A DNA stretch of 64,000 nt from Candidatus Woesebacteria bacterium (GTDB lineage: Bacteria; Patescibacteriota; Microgenomatia; UBA8517): contig CP066686.1 of the NCBI GenBank assembly GCA_016432365.1, forward strand, positions 874,918 to 938,917, read 5' to 3'. Shown here piece by piece: positions 10,515 through 53,177 of this stretch; position 1 is the first letter of the stretch; each line of letters opens with the position of its first letter. The notes beneath the pieces are model-generated. The model did no database searches and was not told where the DNA came from. It saw nothing but the letters and a program-made list of their open reading frames with translations. A program made the position numbers and the translations under genes.

Positions 10515-12194
10515 ATGAAGTTCGTCTTCGTGTCAGGTGGAGTTGTCTCGGGTTTAGGTAAAGGCATAACCTGCTCCTCAATCGGCGCCATTTTAGAATC
10601 CTTCGGAATCAAAGTCACCATCGTCAAAATTGATATGTACCTCAATGTTGATGCCGGTACAATAAGGCCCCAAGAGCATGGTGAAGTTTTTGTAACTGAA
10701 GATGGCCTGGAAACAGACCAGGATCTTGGGAATTACGAACGCTTTTTGAATCACTCACTTCATAGGGAAAATTACATGACCGCAGGACAAGTTTATAAAT
10801 CAGTTATCGATCGTGAACGGGCATTTGGTTATGAGGGCGAAGATGTAGAAGCCATCCCCCATGTAACCGATGAGATAACTAGTCGAATAATGGCGGCAGG
10901 GAAAATAAATAAAGCCGACGTGGTTATAATTGAACTTGGCGGAACAGTTGGCGAATATCAAAATGCAATTTTTTTTGAAGCAAGCAGAATTTTAAAGCTC
11001 AAAAAGCCGAAGGATGTTCTTCAGATACATGTAACATATCTCCCCTTCCTTAAAAATATAGGAGAACTTAAAAGCAAACCGGCTCAACAATCCGTAAAAA
11101 TTTTAAACGGCATGGGAATTCAGCCTGACTTTGTAATTACCAGAAGCGAACTTCCGATCGATCAAAAAAGAAAAGAGAAAATATCAGTATTTTGCAATGT
11201 CCGTGAAGATGAGATTATCGGTAACCCCGATTTAACAAGCATCTACGAAGTTCCGCTATATCTGGAGGAACAAAAGTTTGGTGAAAAGATAATTAAAAAA
11301 CTTGGGCTGAAGAAGAAAGCACGCAACTCCGGACTATCCAGTTGGAAAAAACTTAAAAATCAAAGGCTTAGTGCTAAAAAAGTTTTAAAAATCGCAATGG
11401 TCGGCAAATATTTTATGACCGGAAATTACAAACTGATCGACTCTTATGTTTCAGTTGTTGAGGCAATAAAACAAGCGAGCTGGGCACAAGGAGTTGATCC
11501 CGAATTTACATGGATTGACAGTACTGAATTTGAAAAAGGAAAGATGAGTCTAAAGGGGTTCGACGGAATAGTTGTTCCACAGGGCTGGGGCAGCCGAGGT
11601 ATTGAAGGAAAGCTTATGGCAGTTAGATACGCAAGAGAAAACAAGATCCCCTATCTCGGGCTTTGTTTTGGGATGCAAATGGCCACCATTGAATTCGCGA
11701 GAAATGTTTTAAAACTTAAGGGGGCAAATACAACTGAAGCAGACCCAAGAACGGGTTGTCCGATTATTCATGTAATGAATGATCAAAAAGAATATCTATT
11801 AAAAAAACAATATGGGGGAACCATTCGACTCGGCTCATGGCCTTGCAAAATAAAAGAAGGGTCATTGCTCGATAAAATCTATATGAAATACGGAACCGAT
11901 CCGTCAGCTCCCTGGTATTCTGATCGCGGTTTTAATTCGGTTCCTTCGGATACCAAAGATATAATTTACGAACGCCACAGACATCGATATGAATTTAATA
12001 ATGACTACCGTGAACAATTTGAAAAAGCAGGGTTCGTAATTTCCGGTACTTCCCCGGATGGTAAATTAGTTGAGGCGATGGAACTGGCTAATCACCCATT
12101 TTTTTTGGGAACGCAATTTCACCCTGAATATATTGCGCGTCCACACTCCCCTCACCCAATTTTCCTGGCGTTTGTAAATGCTTGTAAAAAATAG
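10515..12194 (+). CDS. pyrG: CTP synthase
   Basis: N-terminal KFVFVSGGVVSGLGKG; glutamine amidotransferase GLCFGMQ catalytic Cys; 559 aa. Confidence 0.95.
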   Translation: MKFVFVSGGVVSGLGKGITCSSIGAILESFGIKVTIVKIDMYLNVDAGTIRPQEHGEVFVTEDGLETDQDLGNYERFLNHSLHRENYMTAGQVYKSVIDRERAFGYEGEDVEAIPHVTDEITSRIMAAGKINKADVVIIELGGTVGEYQNAIFFEASRILKLKKPKDVLQIHVTYLPFLKNIGELKSKPAQQSVKILNGMGIQPDFVITRSELPIDQKRKEKISVFCNVREDEIIGNPDLTSIYEVPLYLEEQKFGEKIIKKLGLKKKARNSGLSSWKKLKNQRLSAKKVLKIAMVGKYFMTGNYKLIDSYVSVVEAIKQASWAQGVDPEFTWIDSTEFEKGKMSLKGFDGIVVPQGWGSRGIEGKLMAVRYARENKIPYLGLCFGMQMATIEFARNVLKLKGANTTEADPRTGCPIIHVMNDQKEYLLKKQYGGTIRLGSWPCKIKEGSLLDKIYMKYGTDPSAPWYSDRGFNSVPSDTKDIIYERHRHRYEFNNDYREQFEKAGFVISGTSPDGKLVEAMELANHPFFLGTQFHPEYIARPHSPHPIFLAFVNACKK

Positions 12195-12219: not shown

Positions 12220-12639
12220 CTACTCTGTCTTTTTCTGGGGTTTCTTAAAAACCAACAAAATTCCCAAAGTGAAGACTGTAATCATATCCAGTTGGCACAA
12301 TATGCAAACAGGACAGACTACACGAAGTTCAAAAAGCTCACGAAAGGCAATATATAGACAAAATGCCAAACCAAATGTCGCCATACCTAGAACCAACTTC
12401 GCATTTTTCTTGAATGCAGCAAAAAGTATGATGACATAACCAACTAGCCCAATTAAGGGCGTGGGGATTCCGAGAGTGTTTGAAACTTCTCCGGAAATCA
12501 CTGCATCGCAATTAACAGTAGCATTTATATTGCATGGTTGGAAACTTGGTTGAAAATACCTCTCCCAAAGAAGAAAAAGGGCCAAAAAAATTCCAACAAA
12601 GGCTAATATCTTTATCCAGTCAAAATATTTATTATTCAT
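12220..12639 (-). CDS. vitamin K epoxide reductase (VKOR) family protein
   Basis: Four-TM protein with CPVC redox motif and a conserved Cys pair in the loop (CNINATVNCD). Confidence 0.65.
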   Translation of the reverse strand: MNNKYFDWIKILAFVGIFLALFLLWERYFQPSFQPCNINATVNCDAVISGEVSNTLGIPTPLIGLVGYVIILFAAFKKNAKLVLGMATFGLAFCLYIAFRELFELRVVCPVCILCQLDMITVFTLGILLVFKKPQKKTE

Positions 12640-12646
12640 CTAAAAA

Positions 12647-13171
12647 TTATTTTACCACAAAAGTCCCTGTCATCCCTAAACTTTTATGACTTCCTACTGA
12701 ACAATAGAATTCAAAACTCCCTGCTTTGTCGGCCACGAACTGAAGCTGAGCCTCGGATCCACTGCCTATTATCTTTGTTGATAGATTGTATCCATCTATA
12801 CCCAGATTGTGCCTGCCGTCATTATCTTTAAAAGTAATTTTTACTATATCGCCTTTATTTACAACGATTGTTTCAGGATCAAACTTGTAGCTGCTTCCAT
12901 TAACTGTAAATTCTTTAACAGGACCACCCGAAATACTTTTTACATTAGCCAAATCGTTTGAAGACTGTGTTTTTGTTTTACTGAAAAGAAAACCGGCCAT
13001 ACCCAAAACAACCAGTACAACTACAACAACTAACAATTTTGTTGATTTTTTATTTTCCGGTGATCCGTTCGATTCTTCCACTCTGGGTAAATTGTAGCAC
13101 GAATCACCGGCAAGTGGTTTCAAAATTTGTTGTTTGCCCTCGCATAAATGCTTGGGGAAATCTTCATCCAT
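12647..13171 (-). CDS. membrane-anchored cupredoxin (type-1 copper) domain protein
   Basis: N-terminal TM helix; C-terminal C-x2-H-x4-M copper ligand pattern (YCSVGSHKSLGM) with upstream His (GRHNLG). Confidence 0.5.
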   Translation of the reverse strand: MDEDFPKHLCEGKQQILKPLAGDSCYNLPRVEESNGSPENKKSTKLLVVVVVLVVLGMAGFLFSKTKTQSSNDLANVKSISGGPVKEFTVNGSSYKFDPETIVVNKGDIVKITFKDNDGRHNLGIDGYNLSTKIIGSGSEAQLQFVADKAGSFEFYCSVGSHKSLGMTGTFVVK

Positions 13172-13211
13172 CGCGCTGGCGCGCGAGGTTTTAAGATTTG
13201 TTGTTATAAAG

Positions 13212-13589
13212 ATGCAATTGCACGGGTGTATAATGAAGGCGAGAATGTTAAGTCACGAACATTATTTGAGCGAAGGCCTCGTTTGCCACTATCTTATAGA
13301 AAATGCGGACAGAATCGCAAGAGTACGAGATCCAAAAAAAAGAAGTGTCCAGTGTGAAGAATACGCAAGAATAATTTTAGTACCCCTTGCGGCACACGGT
13401 ATTCCCGTTTCTTTGTTGGAACGAATTAAAATAGATTTTGTAAGACCTCAAAGAAATTCAGAGCTTGATAACATTAACAGAGAGTCTGGAATTCTTAAAA
13501 CAGTCAGGGAAACTATTGAGCAAGAATTTGGTCAGGAGTTATCAAGAAGGGTGTCTTTAGTGTTAAGTCCTGAAAAACATCAGTCATGA
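13212..13589 (+). CDS. hypothetical protein
   Basis: ORF only. Start moved to an internal Met to avoid overlap with 12647..13171. Confidence 0.2.
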   Translation: MQLHGCIMKARMLSHEHYLSEGLVCHYLIENADRIARVRDPKKRSVQCEEYARIILVPLAAHGIPVSLLERIKIDFVRPQRNSELDNINRESGILKTVRETIEQEFGQELSRRVSLVLSPEKHQS

Positions 13590-14899: not shown

Positions 14900-16107
14900 A
14901 GAGCTATTAATATTGAGGCAAGTATTACAAGCACCCCTACTCCGCCGGCAATAACTGTTGGCCAATCGGTACCCGTAACAGGAATCGGACGAGGGGTAGC
15001 ACCGGTTCCCGATGAACCGGTTGGGGTAGCTGTAGCGGTTGCAGTAGCAGTTGCAGTAGCAGTAGCTGTGGCTGTAGCGGTTGCAGTAGCAGTTGCAGTA
15101 GCAGTAGCTGTGGCTGTAGCGGTTGCAGTAGCAGTTGCAGTAGCGCTTGCAGGACAACTAACAACCAAGTTGTCGTATGTCACGGTAGCGGTGTTTGAAG
15201 TTGCACCTAAAGCCAGACCCGAAAACGTAAAGTTCACATCGTCAGTGATTGTACCGGTGAAAGTTTTTACTAAAACATAATCTGCCGTAGTTTTATACCA
15301 AAGCGTAAAAACACCGGACTTTCGTTCGACCTTAAAACTAACCGGACCTGAGGTGATATCAACACTAGCACTATCGTTGCCGGTAGTCGCTATATTTCCC
15401 CCAACCTTACTTACACCTCTAAAAACACCAAAATTATATTGATTGGCCGCCATAAAAACAACCATGCCATTTCCTCCTTGGCCGGTTACTGCTATAGACG
15501 GAGAGTCAAAAGTTACTGAAAAGTCCCCACTAAGCTTATTAAGCATTGTTATACCGGAAGTTTCACCAGACTTAATAACCATAGACAACTGACCGGACAC
15601 AATACTAGCATTATTTCCTACATGCCATTTAGTTGTGTCTATAGTGGATGAGGAAAAAGTTTCAGAAAATCCTGCCGAACAAACCAGCGTCCCACCGGTT
15701 CCGGGCGAAGCTGTCGCTGCAGCACACTTAGCCATGTCTGTTGTCCAAGCCCCACCCACAGATGGACAACAATATTCATCCCCTCCACACGACCCGATTT
15801 TACCAACTCTGTTACAAACCTGTTCATCAGGAGACCCGTCTGCCTGAGCAGGGGTACAATTTCTTAAATGTGACGGGTTGCCAGTAACGGGACATTGCTC
15901 GTCAGCGGGACATACAGGTACCGCAGCTTTCTCCTGAATGTTTTGCCTTTGTCGTACTAGAAGAACTCCGGCTACGACGCTAAGAATCAAAAATACAACA
16001 ACCAAAACCGCTACAAGCACACCTTTTTTGCCAAAACTTTTACTTTTTTTAGAAGTTACGATTTCGAACGGAGAGGCAGCTTTCTGATTTGTATTTTGAT
16101 CGGGCAT
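14896..16107 (-). CDS. cell-surface protein with Cys-rich region, lectin/glucanase-like beta domain, (Ala-Thr)n linker and C-terminal TM anchor
   Basis: N-terminal TM/signal-anchor, a Cys cluster, an (AT)x22 run, then PVTGTDWPTVIAGGVGVLVILASILIAL as C-terminal hydrophobic anchor. Confidence 0.5.
   Translation of the reverse strand: MPDQNTNQKAASPFEIVTSKKSKSFGKKGVLVAVLVVVFLILSVVAGVLLVRQRQNIQEKAAVPVCPADEQCPVTGNPSHLRNCTPAQADGSPDEQVCNRVGKIGSCGGDEYCCPSVGGAWTTDMAKCAAATASPGTGGTLVCSAGFSETFSSSTIDTTKWHVGNNASIVSGQLSMVIKSGETSGITMLNKLSGDFSVTFDSPSIAVTGQGGNGMVVFMAANQYNFGVFRGVSKVGGNIATTGNDSASVDITSGPVSFKVERKSGVFTLWYKTTADYVLVKTFTGTITDDVNFTFSGLALGATSNTATVTYDNLVVSCPASATATATATATATATATATATATATATATATATATATATATPTGSSGTGATPRPIPVTGTDWPTVIAGGVGVLVILASILIAL
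15029..15150. repeat. 42-bp tandem repeat, about 2.9 copies (encodes the (Ala-Thr)n linker on the minus strand)
   Basis: Unit gctgtagcggttgcagtagcagttgcagtagcagtagctgtg repeated head-to-tail. Alternate-frame ORFs 14759..15157 and 15068..15280 are artefacts of this repeat. Confidence 0.8.
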
Positions 16108-18236: not shown

Positions 18237-18875
18237 TTATAACTCACGCCTGCCCTCGAGCGCTTGCGTAAGTGTTGTCTCATCAGCATATTCCAAATCT
18301 GCGCCCGTTGGAATACCCATCCCAAGTCTACTAATTTTGACTTTTGCATTTTGAATTTTGACTTTTTTATCTAGATACATGGCAGTAGCATTCCCTTCCA
18401 TAGTTGGATTTGTCGCAATGATTATTTCTTCCACCAGGGCTTTGTCTGGCCAAGCTTTGCTTACTCTTCCACTCTCCTGCTCTTTTACTCTCTTCAATAG
18501 ATCGTCAATATATAATTCATCCGGTCCAATGTTTTCCAATGGATTAATCGCGCCATGAAGAACATGGTAAACCCCTTTAAAATGAGTTCTTTCGAATGCA
18601 AGAATATCCAATGGTTGTTCAACCACCATCACTAACGATTTGTCCCGCATTGGATCTGTACAAATCGGGCAAGGGTCGTCTTCACTAATATTTTTACATA
18701 TTGAACAAAGTTTTGTATTTTTCTTTAAGTTCATAACGGAGTCGGCAAACTCGTCGAGTTGGATTTGGGGAACATGCAAAAGATAGTAAGTAAGGCGCTG
18801 AGCACTCTTTGGCCCGATTCCGGGAAGTTTACTAAAAGATTCAATTAGAGCTGTAATGGGACGTGCAATCTTCAT
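18237..18875 (-). CDS. recR: recombination protein RecR
   Basis: HhH motif (LPGIGPKSAQRL), C4 zinc finger (CSICKN...CPIC), Toprim region, C-terminal GMGIPTGADLEYADETTL. Confidence 0.9.
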   Translation of the reverse strand: MKIARPITALIESFSKLPGIGPKSAQRLTYYLLHVPQIQLDEFADSVMNLKKNTKLCSICKNISEDDPCPICTDPMRDKSLVMVVEQPLDILAFERTHFKGVYHVLHGAINPLENIGPDELYIDDLLKRVKEQESGRVSKAWPDKALVEEIIIATNPTMEGNATAMYLDKKVKIQNAKVKISRLGMGIPTGADLEYADETTLTQALEGRREL

Positions 18876-19310: not shown

Positions 19311-19380
19311 AAGTTAGAAGTCAAAACTCAAAATTTTTACTTTTGAATTGTATTTTTGACTTTTGCTTTTTGAATCTTAA
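19311..19380. repeat. interspersed repeat, family B, copy 1 (dnaX-ybaB intergenic)
   Basis: ttagaagtcaaaa...cttttgaattgtatttttgacttttgctttttgaat. Related to 42285..42395. Confidence 0.6.
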
Positions 19381-19381
19381 T

Positions 19382-20848
19382 TTAATTTCCAAATATCTCT
19401 TCTGCAACCTTGATTATATCCTTATCTTTCCCTTCAGTCAAAATCGGTTCAATTTTATTTTCTTCCACAATCTTCTTTACGGGAGGGTCTACCAATGTAC
19501 AAACAACCCTTGTAGGAGATTGAAGAACTTTTCCAACCACGTCCTCTACTATCCGCCGATGCTGATTATCTTCTAATCGTTCTTTATGAAATTTATAATA
19601 TACCCCCAGGGTCAGGGTCTTTCCGTCGTAAGCTACCGGGCGGGCAGCCCGGAGCAACGCTTCGATCGAGGCATTAATGGGTTTTACAAGTGATAGGACA
19701 TTCTTCCAGGTCTCGCCCTCAACCTCCATATTTTCGACGGGGGCTGAAATTCGCTCATTAGTGATGATTTCAACCGCTTGAATCATCCCTGTCTTAGGAG
19801 TAGGCTCATTTACATCTTCTTTTTTAATTTTTAATTCTTCATTATCAATTACCTCCCCGCACCACTTTATTACAGCAATCTCGAGTGGCAATTCTTCAAT
19901 CGGCGAATCCGGAACTTGGCGGTTGGCTTCAATCAAGAGTTCTGCCAGAAGAATCAATTCGCCACTTCCGTCGACATCCGAAATGATATTTTTGTGTATC
20001 TCGGTAAGCGTTTGTTTAAGTAATGCCTCAACACCCGCACCAGCCTCAACTGCATTTTTGACAAAATTAAGAGCACTGTCCAAATCTTTCTTGTACAAAA
20101 AGTTTACAAACTCCTCCACACCCTGAGCTTTGCCCTTTTCCAGAAATTTATTACCTTCAACACTAACCTGCTCTAAAAGTTTCACAGCATCCCTGAACGA
20201 CCCGTTGGCTGCACCGGCAATATCTTCCAAAGTTTTTGGATCAATATCAAGGTTTTCCCCTTTAATCACACGTGTTAAAGATTGCCGGATTTCTTCAGAG
20301 CTGGCTTTTCTGAATCTGATAAACGTCGTTCTTGATCGGATTGTGTCTATTAGTTTCTCGGGATTTGTTGTTGCCAAAATAAAAACAACATGCTCTGGGG
20401 GTTCCTCAAGGGTTTTAAGTAGCGCGTTGCTGGCTTCGGTTGTTAACATGTGAGCCTCGTCAATAATGTATATTTTTTTATTCGCTTTTACAGGTGAAAG
20501 TTTGACGGCGTCTTTTAAAGTACGAACATCGTCAATACCACGATGACTTGCGGCATCCATTTCAACAACGTCTAAATTATTACCTTTTGTAATAGATATG
20601 CACTGTTCACACTTATCACACGGTTCATAACTTTTCACTTTTAACTTTTCACTTTTCGCTACCTCCTCACAGTTTATTATTTTTGCTAATATTCTTGCTG
20701 CGGAAGTTTTACCCGTTCCTTTTGGTCCGGCAAATAAAAATGCATGAGGTATTTGGCCGGAAGTTACAATTTTTTTTAATGATTCACGGACCTCGGGCAA
20801 ATCAAGTTCATCTAAATTATTTGAACGGTATTTTAAATAGAGTGTCAT
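19382..20848 (-). CDS. dnaX: DNA polymerase III subunit gamma/tau
   Basis: AAA+ P-loop FAGPKGTGKTS; zinc module C..CDKCEQC; DEAH-like IIDEAHML; 488 aa. Confidence 0.9.
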   Translation of the reverse strand: MTLYLKYRSNNLDELDLPEVRESLKKIVTSGQIPHAFLFAGPKGTGKTSAARILAKIINCEEVAKSEKLKVKSYEPCDKCEQCISITKGNNLDVVEMDAASHRGIDDVRTLKDAVKLSPVKANKKIYIIDEAHMLTTEASNALLKTLEEPPEHVVFILATTNPEKLIDTIRSRTTFIRFRKASSEEIRQSLTRVIKGENLDIDPKTLEDIAGAANGSFRDAVKLLEQVSVEGNKFLEKGKAQGVEEFVNFLYKKDLDSALNFVKNAVEAGAGVEALLKQTLTEIHKNIISDVDGSGELILLAELLIEANRQVPDSPIEELPLEIAVIKWCGEVIDNEELKIKKEDVNEPTPKTGMIQAVEIITNERISAPVENMEVEGETWKNVLSLVKPINASIEALLRAARPVAYDGKTLTLGVYYKFHKERLEDNQHRRIVEDVVGKVLQSPTRVVCTLVDPPVKKIVEENKIEPILTEGKDKDIIKVAEEIFGN

Positions 20849-41105: not shown

Positions 41106-43235
41106 ATGGACAAGCTTCAAAAAACAATTTTCGTCTTTTTTGCAATTCTTTTTTTCTTCGTTCCTTTAGTTTTATGGCCGTATACATCTGAGGTTTTTGA
41201 ATTCAACAAAATAGTTTTGGTATACGGATTAACCGTATTAATTACCGGCACCTGGGTAATCCGGATGATTCTGGAAAGAAAAATTATCTTTCGTCGCACA
41301 ATATTAGATATTCCGCTTTTAGTTTTTTTTGCTTCGCAGTTAATTTCGACCCTCCTCTCGATAGATCCATCGACATCATGGTTCGGATATTATTCAAGAT
41401 TTAACGGCGGACTATTGTCTACTATTTCCTATACCCTACTTTACTGGACATTTGTAAGTAATTTAGACCGAAAGCATACCCTACGTATTCTATATACCGT
41501 TCTGTGTTCTGCCGCTATCGTTTCAATATATGGTGTATTAGAACACTGGGGCATTGACAAAGCTCTCTGGGTACAAGATGTTAAGTCCCGTGTCTTTTCC
41601 ACTCTTGGACAGCCAAATTGGCTGGCGGCATATGTCGTAGCGCTCCTGCCCATCACTTGGGCACTCGCGCTAGAAAAATCTCAAATCTCAAATCCGAAAT
41701 CACAAACAAATTCTAAATTCTTAATATATTTCTCGCTTTCGGTTTTGTTTTTCTGGACATTAATTTTTACAAAGTCTCGTTCTGGTCTTTTAGGCCTTGG
41801 GGTTGCTTTCATAATATTTTGGGCTGGATACTTTTGGATTAACCGATTAAAAATTAAAAATATTATGTTTCCGTTTGCAATTATTACTTCTTCATTATTA
41901 ATTATTTGTTTAATCTCCGGCACCCAGTTCACTCCAAGTATTTCCGACCTATTAAACAAATCAAGGATGGCTTTGCCCTCCAAAGCTTTAGCGTCGGAGG
42001 GTCCAGCTCTTGAGGTTGGTGGAACTGAATCCGGCACTATACGTAAAATCGTTTGGACAGGGGCTGTCGAGGTCTGGAAACACTATCCAATTTTTGGGAC
42101 AGGGGTAGAAACATTTGCTTTTTCATACTATCAATATAGACCTGTTGAACACAACTTAGTTTCCGAATGGGATTTTATTTACAACAAAGCACACAACGAA
42201 TATCTTAACATTGCAGCCAATAGCGGATCGTTTGGTTTATTAAGCTATCTTATTTTGATAGGATTTTCAATTTATCAAACATCGCAAGTCAAAAATCAAA
42301 ATTTAGAAGTCAAAAATACAAGTAAAAATTCAAAAATAGAAAGCCAAAACTTTTCACTTTTGAATTGTAATTTTGACTTTTGCCTTTTGAATTTTGCATT
42401 ATTGGCAGGTTATGCAAGTCTCCTAATAACTAATTTTTTTGGCTTTTCGGTCGTTCCAACTCAACTTCAATTATTTTTATTTCCGGCGATAGCTGTGATA
42501 TTAAGTACTAATGAAGAATTAAGAATTAAGAATGAAAAATTTGGGACGCGAACAAATTTTCAAAAACTTGGCTACGTCTCAGTCATATTTCTTATTTCTT
42601 ATTTCTTATTTCTTATTTCTCGCTATTGGTACGCCGACACTCAATATGCTTTGGGTAAGGCATATAACGGCATTCAGAGACAAGACGTTGCCGCGAATTA
42701 TTTAATCCAAGCAGTTAACATTGAGCCCTGGCAACCGCTTTATCACAGCGAGTTGGCAAATTCATACGCGGCCATAGCTTTGGCCCTATACAACCAAAAA
42801 GACGCAGAAAATTCAAAGAAGTATACGGAGCTTGCAATTAGCGAATCCGACAGGTCTATCAACCTTTCTTCTTCTCTGAATTTAAAAAGGTCCCGTTTTG
42901 GCGTTTTTGTAGTACTTTCGACAACAAATCCAGATTACCTCCGTGCCGCCCAAGAAACATTGATTGGTGCCATAACACTTGCCCCAACCGATGCTAAACT
43001 TTATTACAATTTAGCCTTAACCTACGCAAGAACAAACCAACCCGACCGCGCGATGGAGGTTTTAATTAATACAATCGGTTTAAAAGCAAATTACAGGGAT
43101 GCAAGGCTGGCATATGCGTACCTTTTAATGGAGAAGAAAGAATACTCCGAGGCCAAAACTCAGCTCACTTACATTCTTAAATATATCGATCCGAACGACC
43201 CACTCGCCAAACAGGCGCTTGAGGGTATAAAATAA
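41106..43235 (+). CDS. O-antigen ligase (Wzy_C) family membrane protein fused to C-terminal TPR repeats
   Basis: Ten or more TM helices in the first about 390 aa, a low-complexity insert (QNLEVKNTSKNSKIESQNF...) and C-terminal TPR-like repeats (ALGKAYNGIQRQDVAANYLIQAV...). Confidence 0.6.
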   Translation: MDKLQKTIFVFFAILFFFVPLVLWPYTSEVFEFNKIVLVYGLTVLITGTWVIRMILERKIIFRRTILDIPLLVFFASQLISTLLSIDPSTSWFGYYSRFNGGLLSTISYTLLYWTFVSNLDRKHTLRILYTVLCSAAIVSIYGVLEHWGIDKALWVQDVKSRVFSTLGQPNWLAAYVVALLPITWALALEKSQISNPKSQTNSKFLIYFSLSVLFFWTLIFTKSRSGLLGLGVAFIIFWAGYFWINRLKIKNIMFPFAIITSSLLIICLISGTQFTPSISDLLNKSRMALPSKALASEGPALEVGGTESGTIRKIVWTGAVEVWKHYPIFGTGVETFAFSYYQYRPVEHNLVSEWDFIYNKAHNEYLNIAANSGSFGLLSYLILIGFSIYQTSQVKNQNLEVKNTSKNSKIESQNFSLLNCNFDFCLLNFALLAGYASLLITNFFGFSVVPTQLQLFLFPAIAVILSTNEELRIKNEKFGTRTNFQKLGYVSVIFLISYFLFLISRYWYADTQYALGKAYNGIQRQDVAANYLIQAVNIEPWQPLYHSELANSYAAIALALYNQKDAENSKKYTELAISESDRSINLSSSLNLKRSRFGVFVVLSTTNPDYLRAAQETLIGAITLAPTDAKLYYNLALTYARTNQPDRAMEVLINTIGLKANYRDARLAYAYLLMEKKEYSEAKTQLTYILKYIDPNDPLAKQALEGIK
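42285..42395. repeat. interspersed repeat, family B, copy 2, in-frame inside CDS 41106..43235
   Basis: gaagtcaaaaatac...cttttgaattgtaattttgacttttgccttttgaattttgc. The same family as 19311..19380, with a roughly 40-bp internal expansion. Confidence 0.6.
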
Positions 43236-48020: not shown

Positions 48021-48092
48021 GCCTGGGTAGCTCAGTGGTAGAGCGCGTTCTTGGTAAGAACGAGGTCGTGGGTCCAATCCCCACCTCAGGCT
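48021..48092 (+). tRNA. tRNA-Thr (anticodon GGT)
   Basis: Acceptor GCCTGGG/CTCAGGC (one G-U), D-arm GCTCAGTGGTAGAGC, anticodon loop TTGGTAA, T-arm GTGGGTCCAATCCCCAC. Confidence 0.8.
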
Positions 48093-48120
48093 CAAAGATT
48101 GTGTCGTTCTCGGCTATGCC

Positions 48121-48171
48121 GTAAGAACGAGGTCATGGGGGTAGTCCCCACCTCAGGCTCAAAGATTGTGT
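48121..48171 (+). repeat. degenerate duplicate of the 3' half of tRNA-Thr(GGT) plus 12 nt of downstream flank
   Basis: gtaagaacgaggtcatgggggtagtccccacctcaggctcaaagattgtgt versus the original 48054..48104 (about 80% identity; the flank caaagattgtgt is identical). Confidence 0.6.
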
Positions 48172-48221
48172 ATTACACTCGCCCTTGTCGTTTGGTGTCA
48201 TGACTGGTAAAATACCCATGT

Positions 48222-48407
48222 ATGGCAAAAAAGGGCGCCCGAGAACTTGTTAGCATGATTTGTTCCGTATGTAAAAATCAAAATTACATTTCTACCCGGA
48301 ATAAAGTTAATATGGACGTAAAAGGTAAAGGTAAGCTCCAAATCAAAAAATATTGCAAATTTTGCCGAAAGTCTCAGCTTCACAAAGAGAGCTCCAAGCT
48401 CAAATAA
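48222..48407 (+). CDS. rpmG: 50S ribosomal protein L33 (zinc-ribbon form)
   Basis: MAKKG...CSVCKNQNY.STRNK.N...L...KYCKFCRK..LHKE. Confidence 0.8.
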   Translation: MAKKGARELVSMICSVCKNQNYISTRNKVNMDVKGKGKLQIKKYCKFCRKSQLHKESSKLK

Positions 48408-48459
48408 ACCTTACTTAGCTTTTGCCCACTCCCCTTGATATAATTAAACGTATCAATTT

Positions 48460-48533
48460 AGGGTCGTCGTTCAACGGCAGGACAGCGGTCTCCAAAACCG
48501 CTAATGATGGTTCGATTCCATCCGACCCTGCCA
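48460..48533 (+). tRNA. tRNA-Trp (anticodon CCA)
   Basis: Anticodon arm GCGGT-CTCCAAA-ACCGC, T-arm GGTTCGATTCC, acceptor AGGGTCG/CGACCCT, encoded CCA. Confidence 0.75.
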
Positions 48534-48573
48534 CATTTAGTTCACTTAGTTACGAACGTGGCTGGCCATGTAA

Positions 48574-49005
48574 ATGAAAGAAGATAAGGTGTGTTATAAT
48601 TTATCAGATAGAAACATGGTAGATACACAAATCGAGCAAGCTGGTGGAAATGAAATAAAACAAGCCCCTCCTCATTACGTAATCACAGTAGAAGATTTTT
48701 ATAGCGGTCACTATGCCGACAAAATAACACAAGGTGAGTGTGTGGTAGGCAAACTCTTCGGTGAGCCAAAAAGAGAAGATTATGATTCTGAGGCTGAGTA
48801 TCAAAGTAATCAAGCCGCTTTTGACCTCGTTATAAAAATAAATCCTACAGGAAATTTACAAACTTTTAATACGGTTGAAAAACAAGGTGATTACTATTTA
48901 ATGACATCTTTTGATAAAAGTGGTGGTGTTGGAACAATGCCAATGAGCGGAGACGAAAAACTTCTTGTATTTTCAAGGACTCCAAAATTATCTTCAGGTA
49001 GTTAG
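48574..49005 (+). CDS. hypothetical protein (143 aa)
   Basis: ORF. Its 3' end lies inside direct-repeat copy DR34-1. Confidence 0.35.
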   Translation: MKEDKVCYNLSDRNMVDTQIEQAGGNEIKQAPPHYVITVEDFYSGHYADKITQGECVVGKLFGEPKREDYDSEAEYQSNQAAFDLVIKINPTGNLQTFNTVEKQGDYYLMTSFDKSGGVGTMPMSGDEKLLVFSRTPKLSSGS

Positions 49006-49025
49006 AAACTAAAAATTTGCCATTT
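48992..49025. repeat. direct repeat DR34 copy 1 (cttcaggtagttagaaactaaaaatttgccattt)
   Basis: 32/34 identical to 49701..49734. The pair brackets CDS 49041..49652. Confidence 0.7.
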
Positions 49026-49040
49026 GCAGAGTAGCAACCC

Positions 49041-49652
49041 CTACTTTACAACCCTCATTCTGCTTGTCGGTATATTCTCCGGGATCAGAATTTCTGGTAA
49101 ATTAAAATCCCCATAATCGCCTTCACTCCCATCGTGCCCTTCCTTTAGATATTCGGATAAAGGTTTCGCTGTTTCCCAGTAACTTTTTGCGTATGATCTA
49201 GCCGCTTCTAATCCAAAACCCTCCAAATAAGAATCGGCCTCGGTATAATACTCGCCTTCTGCTACGACCGCATTTTGCATTTTCGGATCTATCATGGCTT
49301 CAACAATCACACTTTTTTTGGGGTCGTATGACAAACCCACATTAAACCTATCCGGTCGCCTTGGAAAAGCAAAAACACGTTTAGTTCTATCGACGCCTAC
49401 ACCCATATCCTGTGCCGTTTGATTAAATATTTCCTCAAGTTTTTGTTGTCGCCCGTTCATTCGATTATCTTCAACACGAAAACCATTATCAGCGACATGC
49501 TGCAAACTTTCTTTGCTTACTAGGATGTATACAGGGATAAACCCTTTTGGAATCTCACCGAAATCTCTCAAGGAAAATGGGATCTCATTTTTTGTGGATA
49601 GATTTTGATTATGCGTTTCTAACCCGTCGGCCTCAAGAGCATCAGCATTCAT
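49041..49652 (-). CDS. hypothetical protein (203 aa)
   Basis: ORF flanked by the DR34 pair. No motif recognised. Confidence 0.35.
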   Translation of the reverse strand: MNADALEADGLETHNQNLSTKNEIPFSLRDFGEIPKGFIPVYILVSKESLQHVADNGFRVEDNRMNGRQQKLEEIFNQTAQDMGVGVDRTKRVFAFPRRPDRFNVGLSYDPKKSVIVEAMIDPKMQNAVVAEGEYYTEADSYLEGFGLEAARSYAKSYWETAKPLSEYLKEGHDGSEGDYGDFNLPEILIPENIPTSRMRVVK

Positions 49653-49700
49653 ATTTTAACTATACATTATGAAGGCTGTAGCTCAAATTGTTTTAGATAC

Positions 49701-49734
49701 CTTCAGGTAGTTGGAAACTAAAAATTTGCCACTT
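49701..49734. repeat. direct repeat DR34 copy 2
   Basis: cttcaggtagttggaaactaaaaatttgccactt. Preceded by a 13-codon remnant ORF (MKAVAQIVLDTFR*). Confidence 0.7.
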
Positions 49735-49764
49735 TTCCGAGGGATTTCCATCCAGACCCGCAAA

Positions 49765-50322
49765 CTATTTAGGCAAGAAAAGGAAATCAACCAAGGTTTT
49801 TATTTGTTCTTCTATGTTTTGAGTTCGTATTGAATTGTCTATAACAATTCTCTCCTCAATATCCATTGGACTGTCGACCTCTCTCGATATGTATTGGCCG
49901 TCGATATTTCCTTTTCCGGCAACTTCTTCTTCACAAACAACCTCAATCCAAACAACTTTCTTGTTATTTCTCTGGGCCAATCCTACCGCTTTTTGCCGAT
50001 ATTCCAACTTCGAAAAAGTCGCATCTAAAACAACAGAATGTGCCCCCTCATCAAATAGTTTTTGTGCATTATCAAGCATATCTTCTAGGGCTACTTCCGA
50101 GTGCCAAGGCTCATATTGAATTTCAGAAATTCTTTTTCGCCTAAATACGTCGCTAGACAGTGTTGGGGTTTCCAATCGAAGACTGATTTCGTTAGCTATT
50201 GTGGTTTTTCCTACACCAATTTTTCCAAACACAACCACAACAATAGGCTCGGAAACACTTATTCGTAATTCTTTTGATTCAAACCCCGTTGCTTTAACCT
50301 TCTCAATACCCATATGCAACAA
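49765..50322 (-). CDS. P-loop kinase, AAA_33 / polynucleotide-kinase-like
   Basis: VVVFGKIGVGKTT Walker A; D..F......R pattern resembling the T4 Pnk / zeta-like kinase domain; 185 aa. Confidence 0.5.
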   Translation of the reverse strand: MLHMGIEKVKATGFESKELRISVSEPIVVVVFGKIGVGKTTIANEISLRLETPTLSSDVFRRKRISEIQYEPWHSEVALEDMLDNAQKLFDEGAHSVVLDATFSKLEYRQKAVGLAQRNNKKVVWIEVVCEEEVAGKGNIDGQYISREVDSPMDIEERIVIDNSIRTQNIEEQIKTLVDFLFLPK

Positions 50323-50365
50323 TCATACCAAAATTGAGCAAGCTTTCGACTACACTTTACTCATT

Positions 50366-50415
50366 CCCAACTTTTTGGGCCAGGAGTCGCCCTTCGGAGT
50401 AATTATAAACATCAT
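50366..50415. repeat. direct repeat DR50 copy 1 (perfect 50-mer)
   Basis: cccaactttttgggccaggagtcgcccttcggagtaattataaacatcat. Identical to 51425..51474. Confidence 0.85.
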
Positions 50416-50534
50416 TTTTTATCAGTTGCGTCAAATCTTTGTACAACACTCCTAAAACCCCTGTCCACCTTTCTAACGGTTGGGGCACTCTATCTAATAT
50501 CAACTAAGGAATTTAGTCACCTGCCATAAACCAA

Positions 50535-51461
50535 TTGCACTCCAACAATTGTTTGTCAACGATTTCTAACAATTGGTATACTAGATTCTCCATGTCTGAT
50601 CGTCCACAACAAGAAAAGGAATTTCGAATACGACCGTCTTTATTCGATTCTTTAGACCTACTTCCGCAGACTCCAGAACAAGCCTTAAAGTTCGGTGCTG
50701 AGTATTACAAAGAATTTCTTGAACCGGTTCTTCCGGGACTGGCCAGCGAAGTTGCAAAAATTCAGCAAGAAACAGGTGTACCAAATGACAAAACAGCATG
50801 TGTCTTCTTGGAAAGAGACGCTAGGCCTGCAATGCTTGCCTGGCACGAACTCACGACAGGATCCTCCCTCACTTCACTTTCAATACCAATTTCTGCAACG
50901 CAAATGGACGAAATATTTGAACTTTACCCGCCGTTCGAAAATGCAAACCTTGGACTCATTAAAAATCCCGACGAATGGTCCCGAACTTGGGCACATGAGA
51001 TTGATCCACTTTTCCATTATTTTGGAAATTCCCAAAATTGGGTTGATGCTATACGCGAAAGTCACGGCAAAAAACTAGCTAATACTAAACTCATTAATGT
51101 TGTTGATATCGGATACCACGGCAGCGCCGTTGAAACTGGACGTTACTTACTAAAAAGGGCTTTTCCTGATAAAACAGTAAAATCAATTTTGCTTTATCGT
51201 TACTCAGACGAAATTCCTATACGGTGCGTCAAATCTGACGAAACTACATGGTACGCAGAAAAATCTATCCCCCATACAACATCCGGGTATGCTTTAAGTG
51301 CTGGTAAATACAGGTATCTAAGACCAGAGGCAACAAAAAATAGTATCGAAATTGAAAACCAGTTCTACCGCGGGGTTATTAAGGCAGCCAGAAAAGATAA
51401 AGAGAGATTTAGACTTTTGTCATCCCCAACTTTTTGGGCCAGGAGTCGCCCTTCGGAGTAA
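50535..51461 (+). CDS. hypothetical protein (308 aa; TTG start, or Met at 50592)
   Basis: ORF bracketed by the DR50 pair. Its last 12 codons lie in DR50 copy 2. Confidence 0.35.
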   Translation: MHSNNCLSTISNNWYTRFSMSDRPQQEKEFRIRPSLFDSLDLLPQTPEQALKFGAEYYKEFLEPVLPGLASEVAKIQQETGVPNDKTACVFLERDARPAMLAWHELTTGSSLTSLSIPISATQMDEIFELYPPFENANLGLIKNPDEWSRTWAHEIDPLFHYFGNSQNWVDAIRESHGKKLANTKLINVVDIGYHGSAVETGRYLLKRAFPDKTVKSILLYRYSDEIPIRCVKSDETTWYAEKSIPHTTSGYALSAGKYRYLRPEATKNSIEIENQFYRGVIKAARKDKERFRLLSSPTFWARSRPSE

Positions 51462-52086
51462 TTATAAACATCATCCTTTTGTCGGTAATAGTACGGGGCT
51501 TGGAAGTTCCCCCAACTTTAATCTCGTTCGAATCCCACCAGCGCCTTTGAAAATCCTTAATTCTAAATCTTCTGTCCACCCCTGCGAACTTATGGAACGG
51601 GTCAGCAATTCTTAAATAACCTCTGTTTTTATCTACACGGGTAACAACGCCGTAATGCCCATCGTCTTCGTCTGCATCCTCGTAAAAAACTCCCTGCCAC
51701 TCTACACCTACCGGAAATCCATATTTGTTTACAATTGTATCCAAGTCACTTATTTTAGAATTAGCTTTTTTCCAGAAAGAAAAACCACCTTTGCCGGCAA
51801 TTTTAGATGCCCTTGCCAAGTCTCTTACACTCATACCCCATTTTCTGATTTTCTTCTGGGCGCGAAGAGAGGCCACAATTCGTTTTTGAAAAACCTTTAC
51901 TCCCAGGAAGGAGAAAAGCATGGCAAGGACGGCAGGGCCACAGCTATAGATGTCTACCTGCTTGATCCTGGCCATTTTAGGGAGGGCAACCCCCTGAAGC
52001 CTGTCCTGTAAGGCCAAAAGACGCCTGACTACCGCCCGAACAGTCCTGTTGGTATTTATTTCCATTTGGCCCAATTGTACGGCCAT
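51409..52086 (-). CDS. papain-like cysteine peptidase, C39-like domain
   Basis: QVDIYSCGPAVLAMLFSFLG matches the Q...SCGPA.LAM catalytic-Cys motif of Peptidase_C39-like domains; downstream His/Asp candidates (DGHYGVV). True start may be the internal Met. Confidence 0.45.
   Translation of the reverse strand: MAVQLGQMEINTNRTVRAVVRRLLALQDRLQGVALPKMARIKQVDIYSCGPAVLAMLFSFLGVKVFQKRIVASLRAQKKIRKWGMSVRDLARASKIAGKGGFSFWKKANSKISDLDTIVNKYGFPVGVEWQGVFYEDADEDDGHYGVVTRVDKNRGYLRIADPFHKFAGVDRRFRIKDFQRRWWDSNEIKVGGTSKPRTITDKRMMFIITPKGDSWPKKLGMTKV
51425..51474. repeat. direct repeat DR50 copy 2
   Basis: Perfect 50/50 match to 50366..50415, with one further match 5 nt upstream. Confidence 0.85.
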
Positions 52087-52103
52087 TAGTCAAATTTGTC
52101 CAC

Positions 52104-53177
52104 CTATATATTTCTGGCGTATTTGGAAAGAAGACTTCCAATTGTTTCCGAAAACTCGACTCCATTCATCGACATTACCTCTGTCATCGGAAGACCTATG
52201 TCGGGCCCAAACGCTGTATTGGGATTACTGTCTGTAAAATACGGAATATGAGTATTTTCATCAACCCTTATATCAAACTTTGCATAATCTTTATGTTGTA
52301 ACCCTCCGAAAGCTCTCACCGCAAGTTTTTTGATTTCATACTTTAAACTTTCTTCAACGGGAACATATCTATATGCCCTTGCATCAGAATACGATTCAAA
52401 ACTTGTAAAAAAATGCTTTCCGTCCGGTTTTTTTCTAAATACTTTTTGGGCCATAAAGACATGACGTTTAACGTTGTCTTCAAAAACCACAACCGTAATT
52501 TCCGGCCCATCAATAAACTTTTCTACAATTACAGGAACTTTATAGGTTGAAACCATATGATTGACTCTTAGTTTAGCTGCTCTGTCTGTTTCTTTGACTG
52601 ATGTGTCATTTATACCAACGCTTCCCCCACCTTCATTTAATTTGACTATTAGAGGCAAGCCCAAATCTTCGTCGATGTTTGTTCCGGCGCGACGAATAAA
52701 CTGAAAAGGAGGAGTCGGAACATCGTAAGCCATAAGAAGTCTCTTTGTTAAGTTACGGTTATTACCAATAATTAAGCCTTCCATTCCGGCACCGGTATAG
52801 GGAATGTTGGCAAGCTCAAGAGCCGCCGGAACCGATGGCTGAAGCTGATCTCGACCTTTTAATGTATCAACAAGGTTAATGACCAGATCGGGTCTGTCCA
52901 CCAACAAGTTGGTATAAAAATATTGATCCCCGGGAAGGGTGCGAGTGGGAATTCCGAGTTTCCTAACTTCTTCTGATACCTCAATTGCCCTCGCTTCTAC
53001 TTCGATTTCGGCTTCATATGCATCTTTAGTAGCAAAATTCTCCCGTTCAACAGATGAGTAAGCCACAACAACCAGCCGGAATTTTTTGAGAGCCTCTTTA
53101 TCTACAGACAACTTAATGTTTTCCCTGGACGGAGATTTTTTTATTTCGACTTCTTCCTCGACTTTGGCAGTGGGCAT
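52104..53177 (-). CDS. D-alanine--D-alanine ligase family ATP-grasp enzyme
   Basis: Ddl-like central and C-terminal domains: NIPYTGAG, PLIVKLNEGGGSVGI, ARFDIRVDENTHIPYFTDSNPNTAFGP. Confidence 0.65.
   Translation of the reverse strand: MPTAKVEEEVEIKKSPSRENIKLSVDKEALKKFRLVVVAYSSVERENFATKDAYEAEIEVEARAIEVSEEVRKLGIPTRTLPGDQYFYTNLLVDRPDLVINLVDTLKGRDQLQPSVPAALELANIPYTGAGMEGLIIGNNRNLTKRLLMAYDVPTPPFQFIRRAGTNIDEDLGLPLIVKLNEGGGSVGINDTSVKETDRAAKLRVNHMVSTYKVPVIVEKFIDGPEITVVVFEDNVKRHVFMAQKVFRKKPDGKHFFTSFESYSDARAYRYVPVEESLKYEIKKLAVRAFGGLQHKDYAKFDIRVDENTHIPYFTDSNPNTAFGPDIGLPMTEVMSMNGVEFSETIGSLLSKYARNI

Follow-up and report, generated by a model that had tools for sequence, protein, structure and literature searches.

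A Perfect 50-bp Direct Repeat Around a Single Gene in a Candidatus Woesebacteria Genome: the Duplicated 3' End of a C39-Peptidase-Like Gene as a Probable Scar of Homology-Anchored Recombination

Genes and Features of the Locus

The window is the whole 64,000-nucleotide (64-kb) stretch of DNA that was analysed, and all positions are counted from its first letter. It contains a variable islet (48534-51408) that lies between a conserved left border, formed by rpmG (48222-48407) and tRNA-Trp (48460-48533, plus strand), and a C39-peptidase-like gene annotated with 218 aa (HYV90_05205; 51409-52065, minus strand). Inside the islet are found a P-loop kinase gene (AAA_33; 49765-50313, minus strand, 182 aa), near which a promoter scan placed a promoter-like site (50349-50322, minus strand), two genes of unknown function, and the gene that is here called the cargo gene (HYV90_05200; 50592-51461, plus strand); the genes flanking the islet are collinear housekeeping genes. 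The cargo gene had been described in the original prediction as a 308-aa gene. This length applies to the maximal open reading frame, which starts at a TTG, and the annotated protein starts at the ATG at 50592 and has 289 aa; it corresponds to the source-genome protein P0001 with 100% identity and coverage.

The cargo gene is bracketed by a perfect pair of 50-mers on the plus strand (50366-50415 and 51425-51474, no mismatches), a repeat that is not attributable to chance (no matches in 100 dinucleotide-preserving shuffles). No third copy exists in the 64-kb window, even with three mismatches allowed. The match of 55/56 that was reported for the inclusion of the nucleotides upstream is correct, the ungapped homology of the pair reaches 70 nt with 91% identity (50351-50420 and 51410-51479), and the true homology of the copies extends over about 68 nt. 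As predicted, copy 1 lies between the kinase gene and the cargo gene, and copy 2 holds the last 12 codons and the stop of the cargo reading frame (SPTFWARSRPSE, then the stop).

What had been missed is the reading of the opposite strand. On the minus strand copy 2 (51409-51474) supplies the convergent C39-like gene with its final 21 codons and stop (…DKRMMFIITPKGDSWPKKLGMTKV, then the TAA at 51409-51411). Copy 1 (50350-50415, minus strand) is an orphaned C39-like 3' end with 21 codons and a TAG; it reads K-MMFIITPKGDSWPKKLGMSKV followed by the stop, with an in-frame TGA and TAA immediately upstream and unrelated sequence beyond these, and the kinase gene is located 36 nt downstream of the orphan stop codon. 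The edges of the homology coincide with the stop codon on one side and with codon -21/-22 on the other. Translated, both copies give the conserved C-terminus of the family with the stop at the same codon; copy 2 completes the intact 218-aa gene, and copy 1 is devoid of a gene body.

The C39-Peptidase-Like Gene and Its Two 3' Ends

The gene to which the repeat belongs is by profile a member of the Peptidase C39 family (PF03412: E = 1.4e-7, 31.8 bits versus a cut-off of 22; PF13529: 24.3 versus a cut-off of 24), and Cys42 and His137 were invariant in the 27 homologues aligned. In total 286 homologues were found; the family is conserved across Patescibacteria, and its gene always adjoins a Ddl-like ATP-grasp gene in the synteny comparison. 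The C-terminal consensus of the family is VMFVITPKGESWPKKLGMxKx (27 sequences aligned, 286 homologues). The closest relatives found carry C39-like proteins with 88% (L010) and 78% (L005) identity. The core of the repeat is slow-evolving (49/50 identical in L010, compared to 81% identity overall) and the protein varies in its last codons, therefore two related alleles of this gene are expected to look like copies 1 and 2. Copy 2 and the tail of L010 differ at two positions (66/68, p about 1e-4). The idea of a tail that travels with mobile DNA was ruled out, since 66/68 is also attained by other 68-nt blocks and slow evolution extends over the entire 3' third of the gene.

As far as can be read from its sequence, the repeat is fully explained as conserved coding sequence, and nothing suggests a present-day function of the repeat itself. 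The repeat folded no better than shuffled sequence (z from -1.8 to +0.4), and terminator and Rfam searches with it yielded no match. The search for the 50-mer beyond the pair, which had been proposed as a check, returned nothing from the window or from viral and metagenome collections other than the orthologous gene end of L010. A dispersed REP-like or regulatory element, e.g., a terminator or a small RNA occurring twice by chance, has nothing in its favor beyond the repetition itself. Such an element is extremely improbable: the 64 kb hold just two copies, viral contigs gave no match and metagenomes none besides the L010 gene end, and a sequence that conserved coding already accounts for has no significant fold, terminator or Rfam match.

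The two copies differ at five positions, all confined to the final 16 nt, within the five terminal sense codons and the stop. The differing codons (copy 2/copy 1) are GGG/GGA, ACA/AGT, GTC/GTG, and TAA/TAG, and the allele of copy 1 ends with …GGA ATG AGT AAA GTG TAG. Four of the five differences are at third codon positions, one gives Thr/Ser, and the stop remains a stop; an ending in …GMSKV and the stop occurs naturally elsewhere in the C39-like family (P0115). Under neutral drift the clustering of the differences has a probability of about 1e-3 (C(18,5)/C(66,5)), with the scripted version of the calculation using n = 68 and 7 differences. Because the differences look coding-constrained, the copies appear to derive from two alleles rather than from a duplication in place.

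Such a duplication in place, whereby a 1-kb fragment would have been inserted with a long target-site duplication (by staggered breaks or replication template switching) and the orphan would have drifted later, agrees with direct repeats that tightly bracket the insert, with a perfect core that suggests a recent event, and with the presence of a second pair of the same geometry next door (described below). However, drift in the stub should be spread over about 66 nt and not be confined to the last 16 nt, nor should it favor third positions and spare the stop. The flank of copy 2 is ancestral-like (one difference from L010), so that the changes would all have to lie in the stub. Transposase target-site duplications typically measure 2-15 bp, and the 66 nt needed here are far above this length. 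A duplication of this kind is thus considered unlikely, and the long target-site duplication put forward in the original prediction does not agree with a repeat of ~66 nt that is imperfect and has neither terminal inverted repeats (none at 50416 or 51408) nor a transposase.

The two coding-type alleles could also be explained without any foreign DNA, if a second C39-like gene had once existed in tandem or nearby and been lost except for its final 66 nt, with the 289-aa gene now lying between this remnant and the survivor. Against this, a second C39-like copy or a second tail was absent from all 79 other C39-like loci over 10 kb on either side, the stub breaks off sharply and no decayed C39-like coding signal is visible to the right of 50415, and a perfect core of 50 nt between old paralogues would need gene conversion. 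An eroded paralogue is therefore held to be improbable as well, and the derivation of the copies from two alleles by recombination is the reading followed below.

The Inserted Segment and the Cargo Gene

The presumed inserted segment (50416-51408, plus strand) comprises the 993 nt between the tail copies, namely a 176-nt upstream region, in which the promoter scan identified a promoter-like site (50553-50582), and the main part of the 289-aa reading frame. The reading frame has no stop codon of its own inside the insert; over its last 17 codons it lies antisense to the C39-like tail, with a 53-nt overlap between the convergent genes, and the repeat-encoded end of the cargo protein is disordered. 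The GC content of the insert (0.411) is indistinguishable from that of the genome, which fits a closely related donor without demonstrating one.

The cargo protein is a member of a very rare family for which a phosphoribosyltransferase-like fold is predicted; it had no Pfam, NCBIfam, PHROG or PADLOC match, and it is not a recombinase. A viral origin of the cargo was rejected, with no relatives in IMG/VR and no PHROG match. The three known homologues of the cargo protein do not have the repeat-encoded tail, contrary to the possibility that homologues of the 308-aa protein share this C-terminus, and their context differs, as their genes follow a RecD-like helicase gene. None of them is flanked by any such repeat sequence, and a helicase remnant was not found in the sequence that precedes the 289-aa gene. 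A duplicated gene 3' end, named in the original prediction as the outcome that would speak against a cassette boundary, is indeed what the repeat represents, but it is that of the C39-like gene on the opposite strand and not that of the 308-aa gene.

Integrative elements are typically inserted at a gene's 3' end and flanked by direct repeats whose core is identical, and the copy on the side of the element rebuilds the gene. The arrangement at this locus is similar, and a mobile cassette would treat the 50-mer as an attachment site and the 1,059-bp unit, equipped with a surrogate gene end, as a circle that moves by means of a recombinase encoded elsewhere or of host recombination; the de Bruijn graph implied by the Logan contigs (see below) fits an empty site plus a circle equally well. 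Yet no recombinase or transposase was found in or beside the unit, no integrase or transposase in the islet, and no integrase in its flanks either, and the cargo is phosphoribosyltransferase-like. No orphan tail was detected in the 79 other target loci, and neither the window nor the viral and metagenome collections yielded further copies. In addition, the homologues of the cargo occur without such flanks, and the neighboring repeat pairs are unrelated in sequence. We accordingly consider a mobile cassette quite unlikely, and the att-like sites proposed in the original prediction are not borne out by a locus with no recombinase, no recurrence in 79 loci and no further copies found.

Support from Independent Assemblies

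Two independent Logan assemblies, built from different sequencing runs, contain the kinase gene, the flank of the orphan and the core with 100% identity, and both of these assemblies break exactly 30 nt into the core. The raw read sets therefore contain copy 1, which is not a mistake confined to the deposited genome. SRR12113420 and SRR12113421 were the only runs in which the sequence was found. In the Logan contigs the graph branches at the core, and each junction between a flank and the core is independently supported. An exact look-up of the 289-aa protein in the assemblies gave no match, probably because short-k contigs break in the repeat before the stop codon is reached.

The source is a metagenome-assembled genome, and the exact break of short-k assemblies at the core could also be expected if strain variants that share the core had been joined wrongly into an arrangement present in no single cell. 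This explanation is very unlikely, since the junction between the core and the sequence upstream of the 289-aa gene must exist in the reads for any k-mer assembler. A repeat of 50-56 nt is, moreover, presumably shorter than typical reads and the largest k values, each flank-core junction has its own support, and the contig that carries the locus is 1.08 Mb long.

Relatives, the Variable Islet and Its Other Repeat Pairs

The genes on both sides of the locus are collinear with those of L010, L005, L006, and L007/8, and between the C39-like gene and tRNA-Trp/rpmG each genome differs. The flanks common to L005-L010 consist of the Ddl-like and C39-like genes on one side and of rpmG and tRNA genes on the other. 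L090/L091 and L010 represent one organism. The relatives searched included no donor-like or pre-insertion genome, with L005, L010, and L090/L091 being too distant and having other islet content, and for this reason we infer the history of the locus from one genome. A search for a recombination breakpoint between the window and L005 showed only a drop in identity from ~85% to ~75% at the gene boundary, which the differing constraint on the two genes explains.

Only three high-identity direct-repeat pairs occur in the 64 kb; all of them are inside the 3.4-kb islet, and two involve the 3' ends of other genes. The second pair consists of 37 nt at 48989-49025, which contain the last five codons and the stop of ORF143 (48574-49005, plus strand) as well as 20 nt downstream, and of a copy at 49698-49734 between the 203-aa gene and the kinase gene that is identical at 34/37 positions and has TAG changed to TGG. 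This pair brackets the 203-aa gene (49041-49652, minus strand) in the same geometry as the 50-mer pair. The third pair (48054-48171, plus strand) is formed by the 3' half of tRNA-Thr(GGU) with 11 nt of trailer (48054-48104), which appears again at 48121-48171 (46/51 identical, differences clustering in the T-loop). No motif common to the pairs is evident by eye, and their sequences are unrelated.

The kinase gene is in the place expected for a former downstream neighbor of the orphan's C39-like gene. The possibility that the orphan arrived together with the kinase gene was examined with uninformative outcome: the homologues of the kinase gene occur in NUDIX/DUF1706 surroundings, and neither a C39-like gene nor a tail is close to them.

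Proposed Origin and Significance

The reading that we consider probable is that the repeat is the 3' end of the conserved C39-like gene, orphaned at the left copy, and that the pair is the scar of homology-anchored recombination. The slow-evolving 3' end of the C39-like gene would have offered a pairing site to DNA from a related Woesebacteria genome, which would have been joined in one of two ways: a re-circularised fragment entered by a single crossover, or one side was joined through homologous exchange and the other through an illegitimate joint (50415/50416). Some 1 kb with a single phosphoribosyltransferase-like gene would hereby have come to lie between two versions of the gene end, leaving the C39-like gene intact and a 66-nt stub behind. 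Duplication of the homologous segment has been described for single crossovers of re-circularised fragments (PMC3240628), and displacement by incoming DNA has been shown to leave orphaned 3' ends (PMC5361080).

The coding nature of the repeat, the stub, the coding-like differences and the variability of the islet are direct observations, as are the negative searches for a recombinase, for recurrence and for further copies; the route and the side of the incoming DNA are what we infer. Either the 289-aa gene side or the kinase side may have been incoming; the resemblance of the flank of copy 2 to L010, over 18 nt, would make copy 1 the foreign allele. A perfect run of 50 nt between two independent alleles is plausible only because this stretch is slow-evolving, and gene conversion may have acted on the core later. 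The view that the repeat reflects a duplication and brackets one gene that looks inserted is correct.

On this reading, the locus provides a base-resolved example of how a very small, host-dependent genome gains one gene without mobile-element machinery: the conserved end of a resident gene served as the homology, the gene was kept intact, and a stub records the event. The finding leaves the current understanding of gene transfer unchanged. The event is most likely of an ordinary sort rather than the work of a new mobile cassette. It also calls for caution, in that perfect 'intergenic' repeats should be translated on both strands before an att site is named. On a more speculative note, the three gene-3'-end duplications, two of which tightly bracket one gene each, might point to a recurrent, recombinase-independent gain of single genes in reduced CPR genomes, by means of tiny circles or fragments that use short homology to a neighboring gene's conserved end, with the 1,059-bp unit still able to excise and re-insert; we deem this extension improbable.

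Comparison with Known Systems

Several known systems share single traits with the locus. Short direct repeats flank a small unit also in the case of transposon target-site duplications and integron cassettes, and a repeated short sequence is the hallmark of REP elements. Unlike in transposons, the repeat here is about 66 nt long with five coding-like differences and is accompanied by neither a transposase nor inverted repeats; unlike in integron cassettes, an attC-like hairpin is lacking and neither the islet nor its flanks were found to encode an integron integrase; and unlike REP elements, the sequence has only two copies in the 64-kb window. Integrative elements at the 3' ends of tRNA or protein genes resemble the locus in their direct repeats with an identical core, in the rebuilding of the gene by the copy that adjoins the insert, and in the islet border next to a tRNA gene. 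They differ from it in that the present unit has no integrase, is a 1-kb single-gene unit, shows no reuse of the target in 79 genomes and gives no sign of excision.

In a Campbell-type single crossover with a circularised fragment the homologous segment is duplicated on both sides of the insert, as is the case here, and homology-facilitated illegitimate recombination (HFIR) integrates about 1 kb of foreign DNA beside a homologous anchor (PMC3240628). The duplications in these experimental reports are 109-950 bp long, as opposed to about 66 nt at this locus. Classical HFIR usually results in an insertion plus a deletion with 3-10 bp of microhomology, whereas here a duplication is seen with at best a few T residues at 50415/50416.

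Parallels are further offered by rhs loci, the CDI/Rhs orphan arrays, and the displacement of T6SS effector-immunity modules in Vibrio cholerae, termed 'C-terminal displacement'. In this process a resident gene receives a new end from incoming DNA that pairs with its conserved part, the old 3' end is shifted downstream and persists as an orphan, and the route proposed for it is homologous pairing combined with an illegitimate joint (PMC5361080). Unlike in these systems, the displaced piece here is 21 codons long, both ends encode essentially the same peptide, and no new protein variant results; the gain is a separate, unrelated gene placed between the two ends, and the gene is no polymorphic toxin.

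The repeat and the gene it encodes

An exact search of the window found the 50-mer CCCAACTTTTTGGGCCAGGAGTCGCCCTTCGGAGTAATTATAAACATCAT in exactly two + strand copies (50366-50415 and 51425-51474), as originally predicted, with 0 matches in 100 shuffled sequences; no third copy occurred in the window, even with three mismatches allowed. Without gaps the homology extends over 70 nt (91% identity). The repeat folded no better than shuffled sequence, no terminator was found in it, and no Rfam family matched. The placement of both copies relative to the genes was also correct, and one gene does lie between them, but it is annotated as 289 aa in the source genome (HYV90_05200, ATG at 50592; Candidatus Woesebacteria, 1.08-Mb contig), the 308 aa previously assigned to it being the maximal TTG ORF.

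The earlier reading of the repeat was confined to the + strand. Read in the minus direction, copy 2 terminates a convergent gene of 218 aa (51409-52065). Its product matches Peptidase_C39 with a score above the Pfam cut-off, and 286 homologues of it could be detected, most of them in Patescibacteria. The C-terminus is among the best conserved parts of these homologues (consensus VMFVITPKGESWPKKLGMxKx). Copy 2 encodes …DKRMMFIITPKGDSWPKKLGMTKV* and copy 1, in the same frame, K-MMFIITPKGDSWPKKLGMSKV*; TGA and TAA lie directly upstream of the latter. The homology between the copies extends exactly from codon -21/-22 to the stop codon. Since the repeat encodes the conserved C39-like C-terminus and its homology ends at the stop codon, it is the 3' end of the C39-like gene in duplicate, with one working end (copy 2) and one orphan stub (copy 1). 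A duplicated gene 3' end instead of a cassette boundary, which the original prediction had considered for the bracketed gene, was therefore found for the opposite-strand gene, as its C-terminal consensus shows.

The C39-like gene is paired with a Ddl-like ATP-grasp gene (together 51409-53177), and the same pairing with a stand-alone C39-like gene was observed at five gene-called Patescibacteria loci (L005-L009) and at L010 of Woesebacteria GW2011_GWB1_39_10, which suggests a common, uncharacterised peptide-ligase/peptidase function. C39-like homologues were also present in contigs labelled Chloroflexi/Anaerolineales. Among the contigs with this Patescibacteria-type C39-like gene, many (loci L013-L023 and others) bear the title “uncultured Gammaproteobacteria/Pseudomonadales bacterium” and are probably mislabelled bins.

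The bracketed gene

With no stop codon before the C39-like tail, the 289-aa ORF (50592-51461) continues into it in antisense for 17 codons until a TAA; it overlaps the convergent C39-like gene by 53 nt (51409-51461). Its three known homologues are 44-47% identical, and the alignment ends at …FYRGVIxAAxxD, before the repeat-encoded C-terminus; none of the three carries the SPTFWARSRPSE tail. Residues 281-289 are disordered in the predicted structure, which has a phosphoribosyltransferase/ribofuranosyltransferase-like fold. The family is very rare, with 8 representative clusters among 1.84 billion proteins.

At four loci in other genomes (L001-L004) a RecD-like helicase gene immediately precedes the family gene, and the two may constitute an undescribed two-gene module. 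At L001 (6767-8834) and L002 (3520-5619) a tRNA-Trp-like sequence, recognised only by tblastx similarity to the tRNA-Trp of the window, is found 2-4 kb away. Two members (P0132 and P0134) have an additional N-terminal half of ~240 aa without a Pfam match.

Tests for mobility and assembly support

The proposed duplication around one gene stands, but its readings as att-like sites, a long target-site duplication, or a mobile 1.06-kb cassette were not supported: no recombinase is encoded in the repeat-bracketed unit or the islet, the insert ends lack inverted repeats, and a second C39-like tail was found at 0 of 79 other C39-like loci, each searched up to 10 kb on either side at the DNA and peptide levels using its own tail as query. 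A codon-degenerate version of the tail matched only the L010 organism in JGI metagenomes, the 50-nt core was absent from IMG/VR, and no tail was found at loci of homologues of the kinase or the 289-aa protein.

Logan assemblies from two separate runs (SRR12113421 and SRR12113420) were 100% identical to the window from 50395 leftwards, and both stopped exactly at this position, which is 30 nt (k-1, k = 31) into the core from the first base distinguishing the flanks. A break of this kind is typical of a unitig assembler where two different flanks meet a shared core. This shows that the stub beside the AAA_33 kinase gene (49765-50313, minus strand) is genuine and that the second flank is present in the same read sets. 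The graph is silent on the sequence following each core, and would fit the integrated form and, equally, a 1,059-bp circle alongside an empty site; in the deposited contig the arrangement is the integrated one.

The islet and its other repeats

Every relative examined has a CTP-transferase-like and then a Ddl-like ATP-grasp gene upstream of the C39-like gene, and rpmG and tRNA genes lie on the opposite side. The segment between is a small variable islet with different gene content in each genome: the 289-aa gene, the stub, the kinase and two proteins without assigned function (203 and 143 aa) in the window; a YafQ-like toxin with RHH partner, a nucleoside hydrolase and two more ORFs beyond tRNA-Trp at L010; an acetyltransferase at L006; and eight other genes at L007/8. 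The L010 toxin pair (10662-11190) lies 5 nt from the C39-like stop codon. A 223-aa ORF (12632-13303) separates tRNA-Trp and rpmG there; in the window these are adjacent.

The 64-kb window contains only three high-identity direct-repeat pairs that are not low-complexity, all within a 3.4-kb islet region (48054-51479) bounded by tRNA-Thr/rpmG/tRNA-Trp and the C39-like gene; the L010 islet has none. Besides the C39-like tail pair, a 37-nt pair (48989-49025 and 49698-49734; 34/37 identical) brackets the 203-aa minus-strand gene (49041-49652). Its first copy includes the last 5 codons and stop of the convergent 143-aa ORF (48574-49005), and in the second TAG has become TGG; as in the 50-mer pair, the orphan copy lies upstream of the bracketed gene. 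The third pair (48054-48104 and 48121-48171; 46/51 identical) arises from duplication of the tRNA-Thr(GGU) 3' half, together with 11 trailer nt, 67 nt downstream; all five differences are clustered in the T-loop, and a hairpin can still form in the second copy. This duplicate is absent from L010, where a 141-aa ORF lies between tRNA-Thr and rpmG. That three duplicated gene ends are clustered within 3.4 kb is the sole feature that might repay more work.

The remaining repeat families of the window are low-complexity A/T-rich motifs. TTTTGACTTTTGCATTTTGAATTTTGAC-like motifs (75-89% identical) occur at at least six sites, including 18332-18367, 19323-19386 and 42340-42403, and may be promoter or regulatory motifs. 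A tandem array at 15008-15168 (12/18-nt periodicity, 9 overlapping copies of GTTGCAGTAGCA-like units) would encode a low-complexity repeat if inside a gene.

Two putative alleles of one gene end

The two copies differ at five positions, all in the last 16 nt (GGG/GGA, ACA/AGT, GTC/GTG, TAA/TAG). Four are third codon positions, one pair is Thr/Ser, and both copies retain the stop at the identical codon position. By our arithmetic the chance of all five falling within the last 18 nt is ~1e-3; being clustered and not scattered over ~66 nt, the differences do not show the pattern expected from drift of the stub after in-place duplication. The ending “…GMSKV*” occurs naturally elsewhere in the C39-like family (P0115 and others). 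Judged from their sequences, the copies appear to be two alleles rather than a fresh in-place copy. The whole 3' third of the C39-like gene evolves slowly, the 50-nt core being such a stretch, and the variable part of the protein is formed by the last five codons; between two related alleles one would therefore expect a core without differences and a flank that has diverged.

L010 was the closest relative found, with 88% identity at the protein and 81% at the DNA level and with collinear genes to either side. Only one core position and one flank position distinguish its tail from copy 2. This near-identity was considered as an anomaly (p ~1e-4) and dropped, other 68-nt blocks being equally conserved.

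Putative origin and known counterparts

The repeat is most likely a recombination scar at the islet border. DNA bearing its own version of the gene end would have recombined with the resident C39-like gene end, possibly when a re-circularised fragment entered the chromosome by a single crossover; such a crossover would duplicate the shared segment, as has been documented (PMC3240628). Alternatively, homologous exchange inside the C39-like gene or past it may have been accompanied by an illegitimate joint in the resident tail (50415/50416). The 18 nt of copy 2 flank that resemble L010 hint at the stub, perhaps together with the kinase block, being the foreign allele. HFIR-type events usually result in insertion plus deletion, but a joint located within the anchor gene leaves a stub. 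Such displacement is well described as a source of orphaned 3' ends at rhs, CDI and T6SS loci (PMC5361080). The gene-end duplication reported here is a fresh instance of an already known kind of event.
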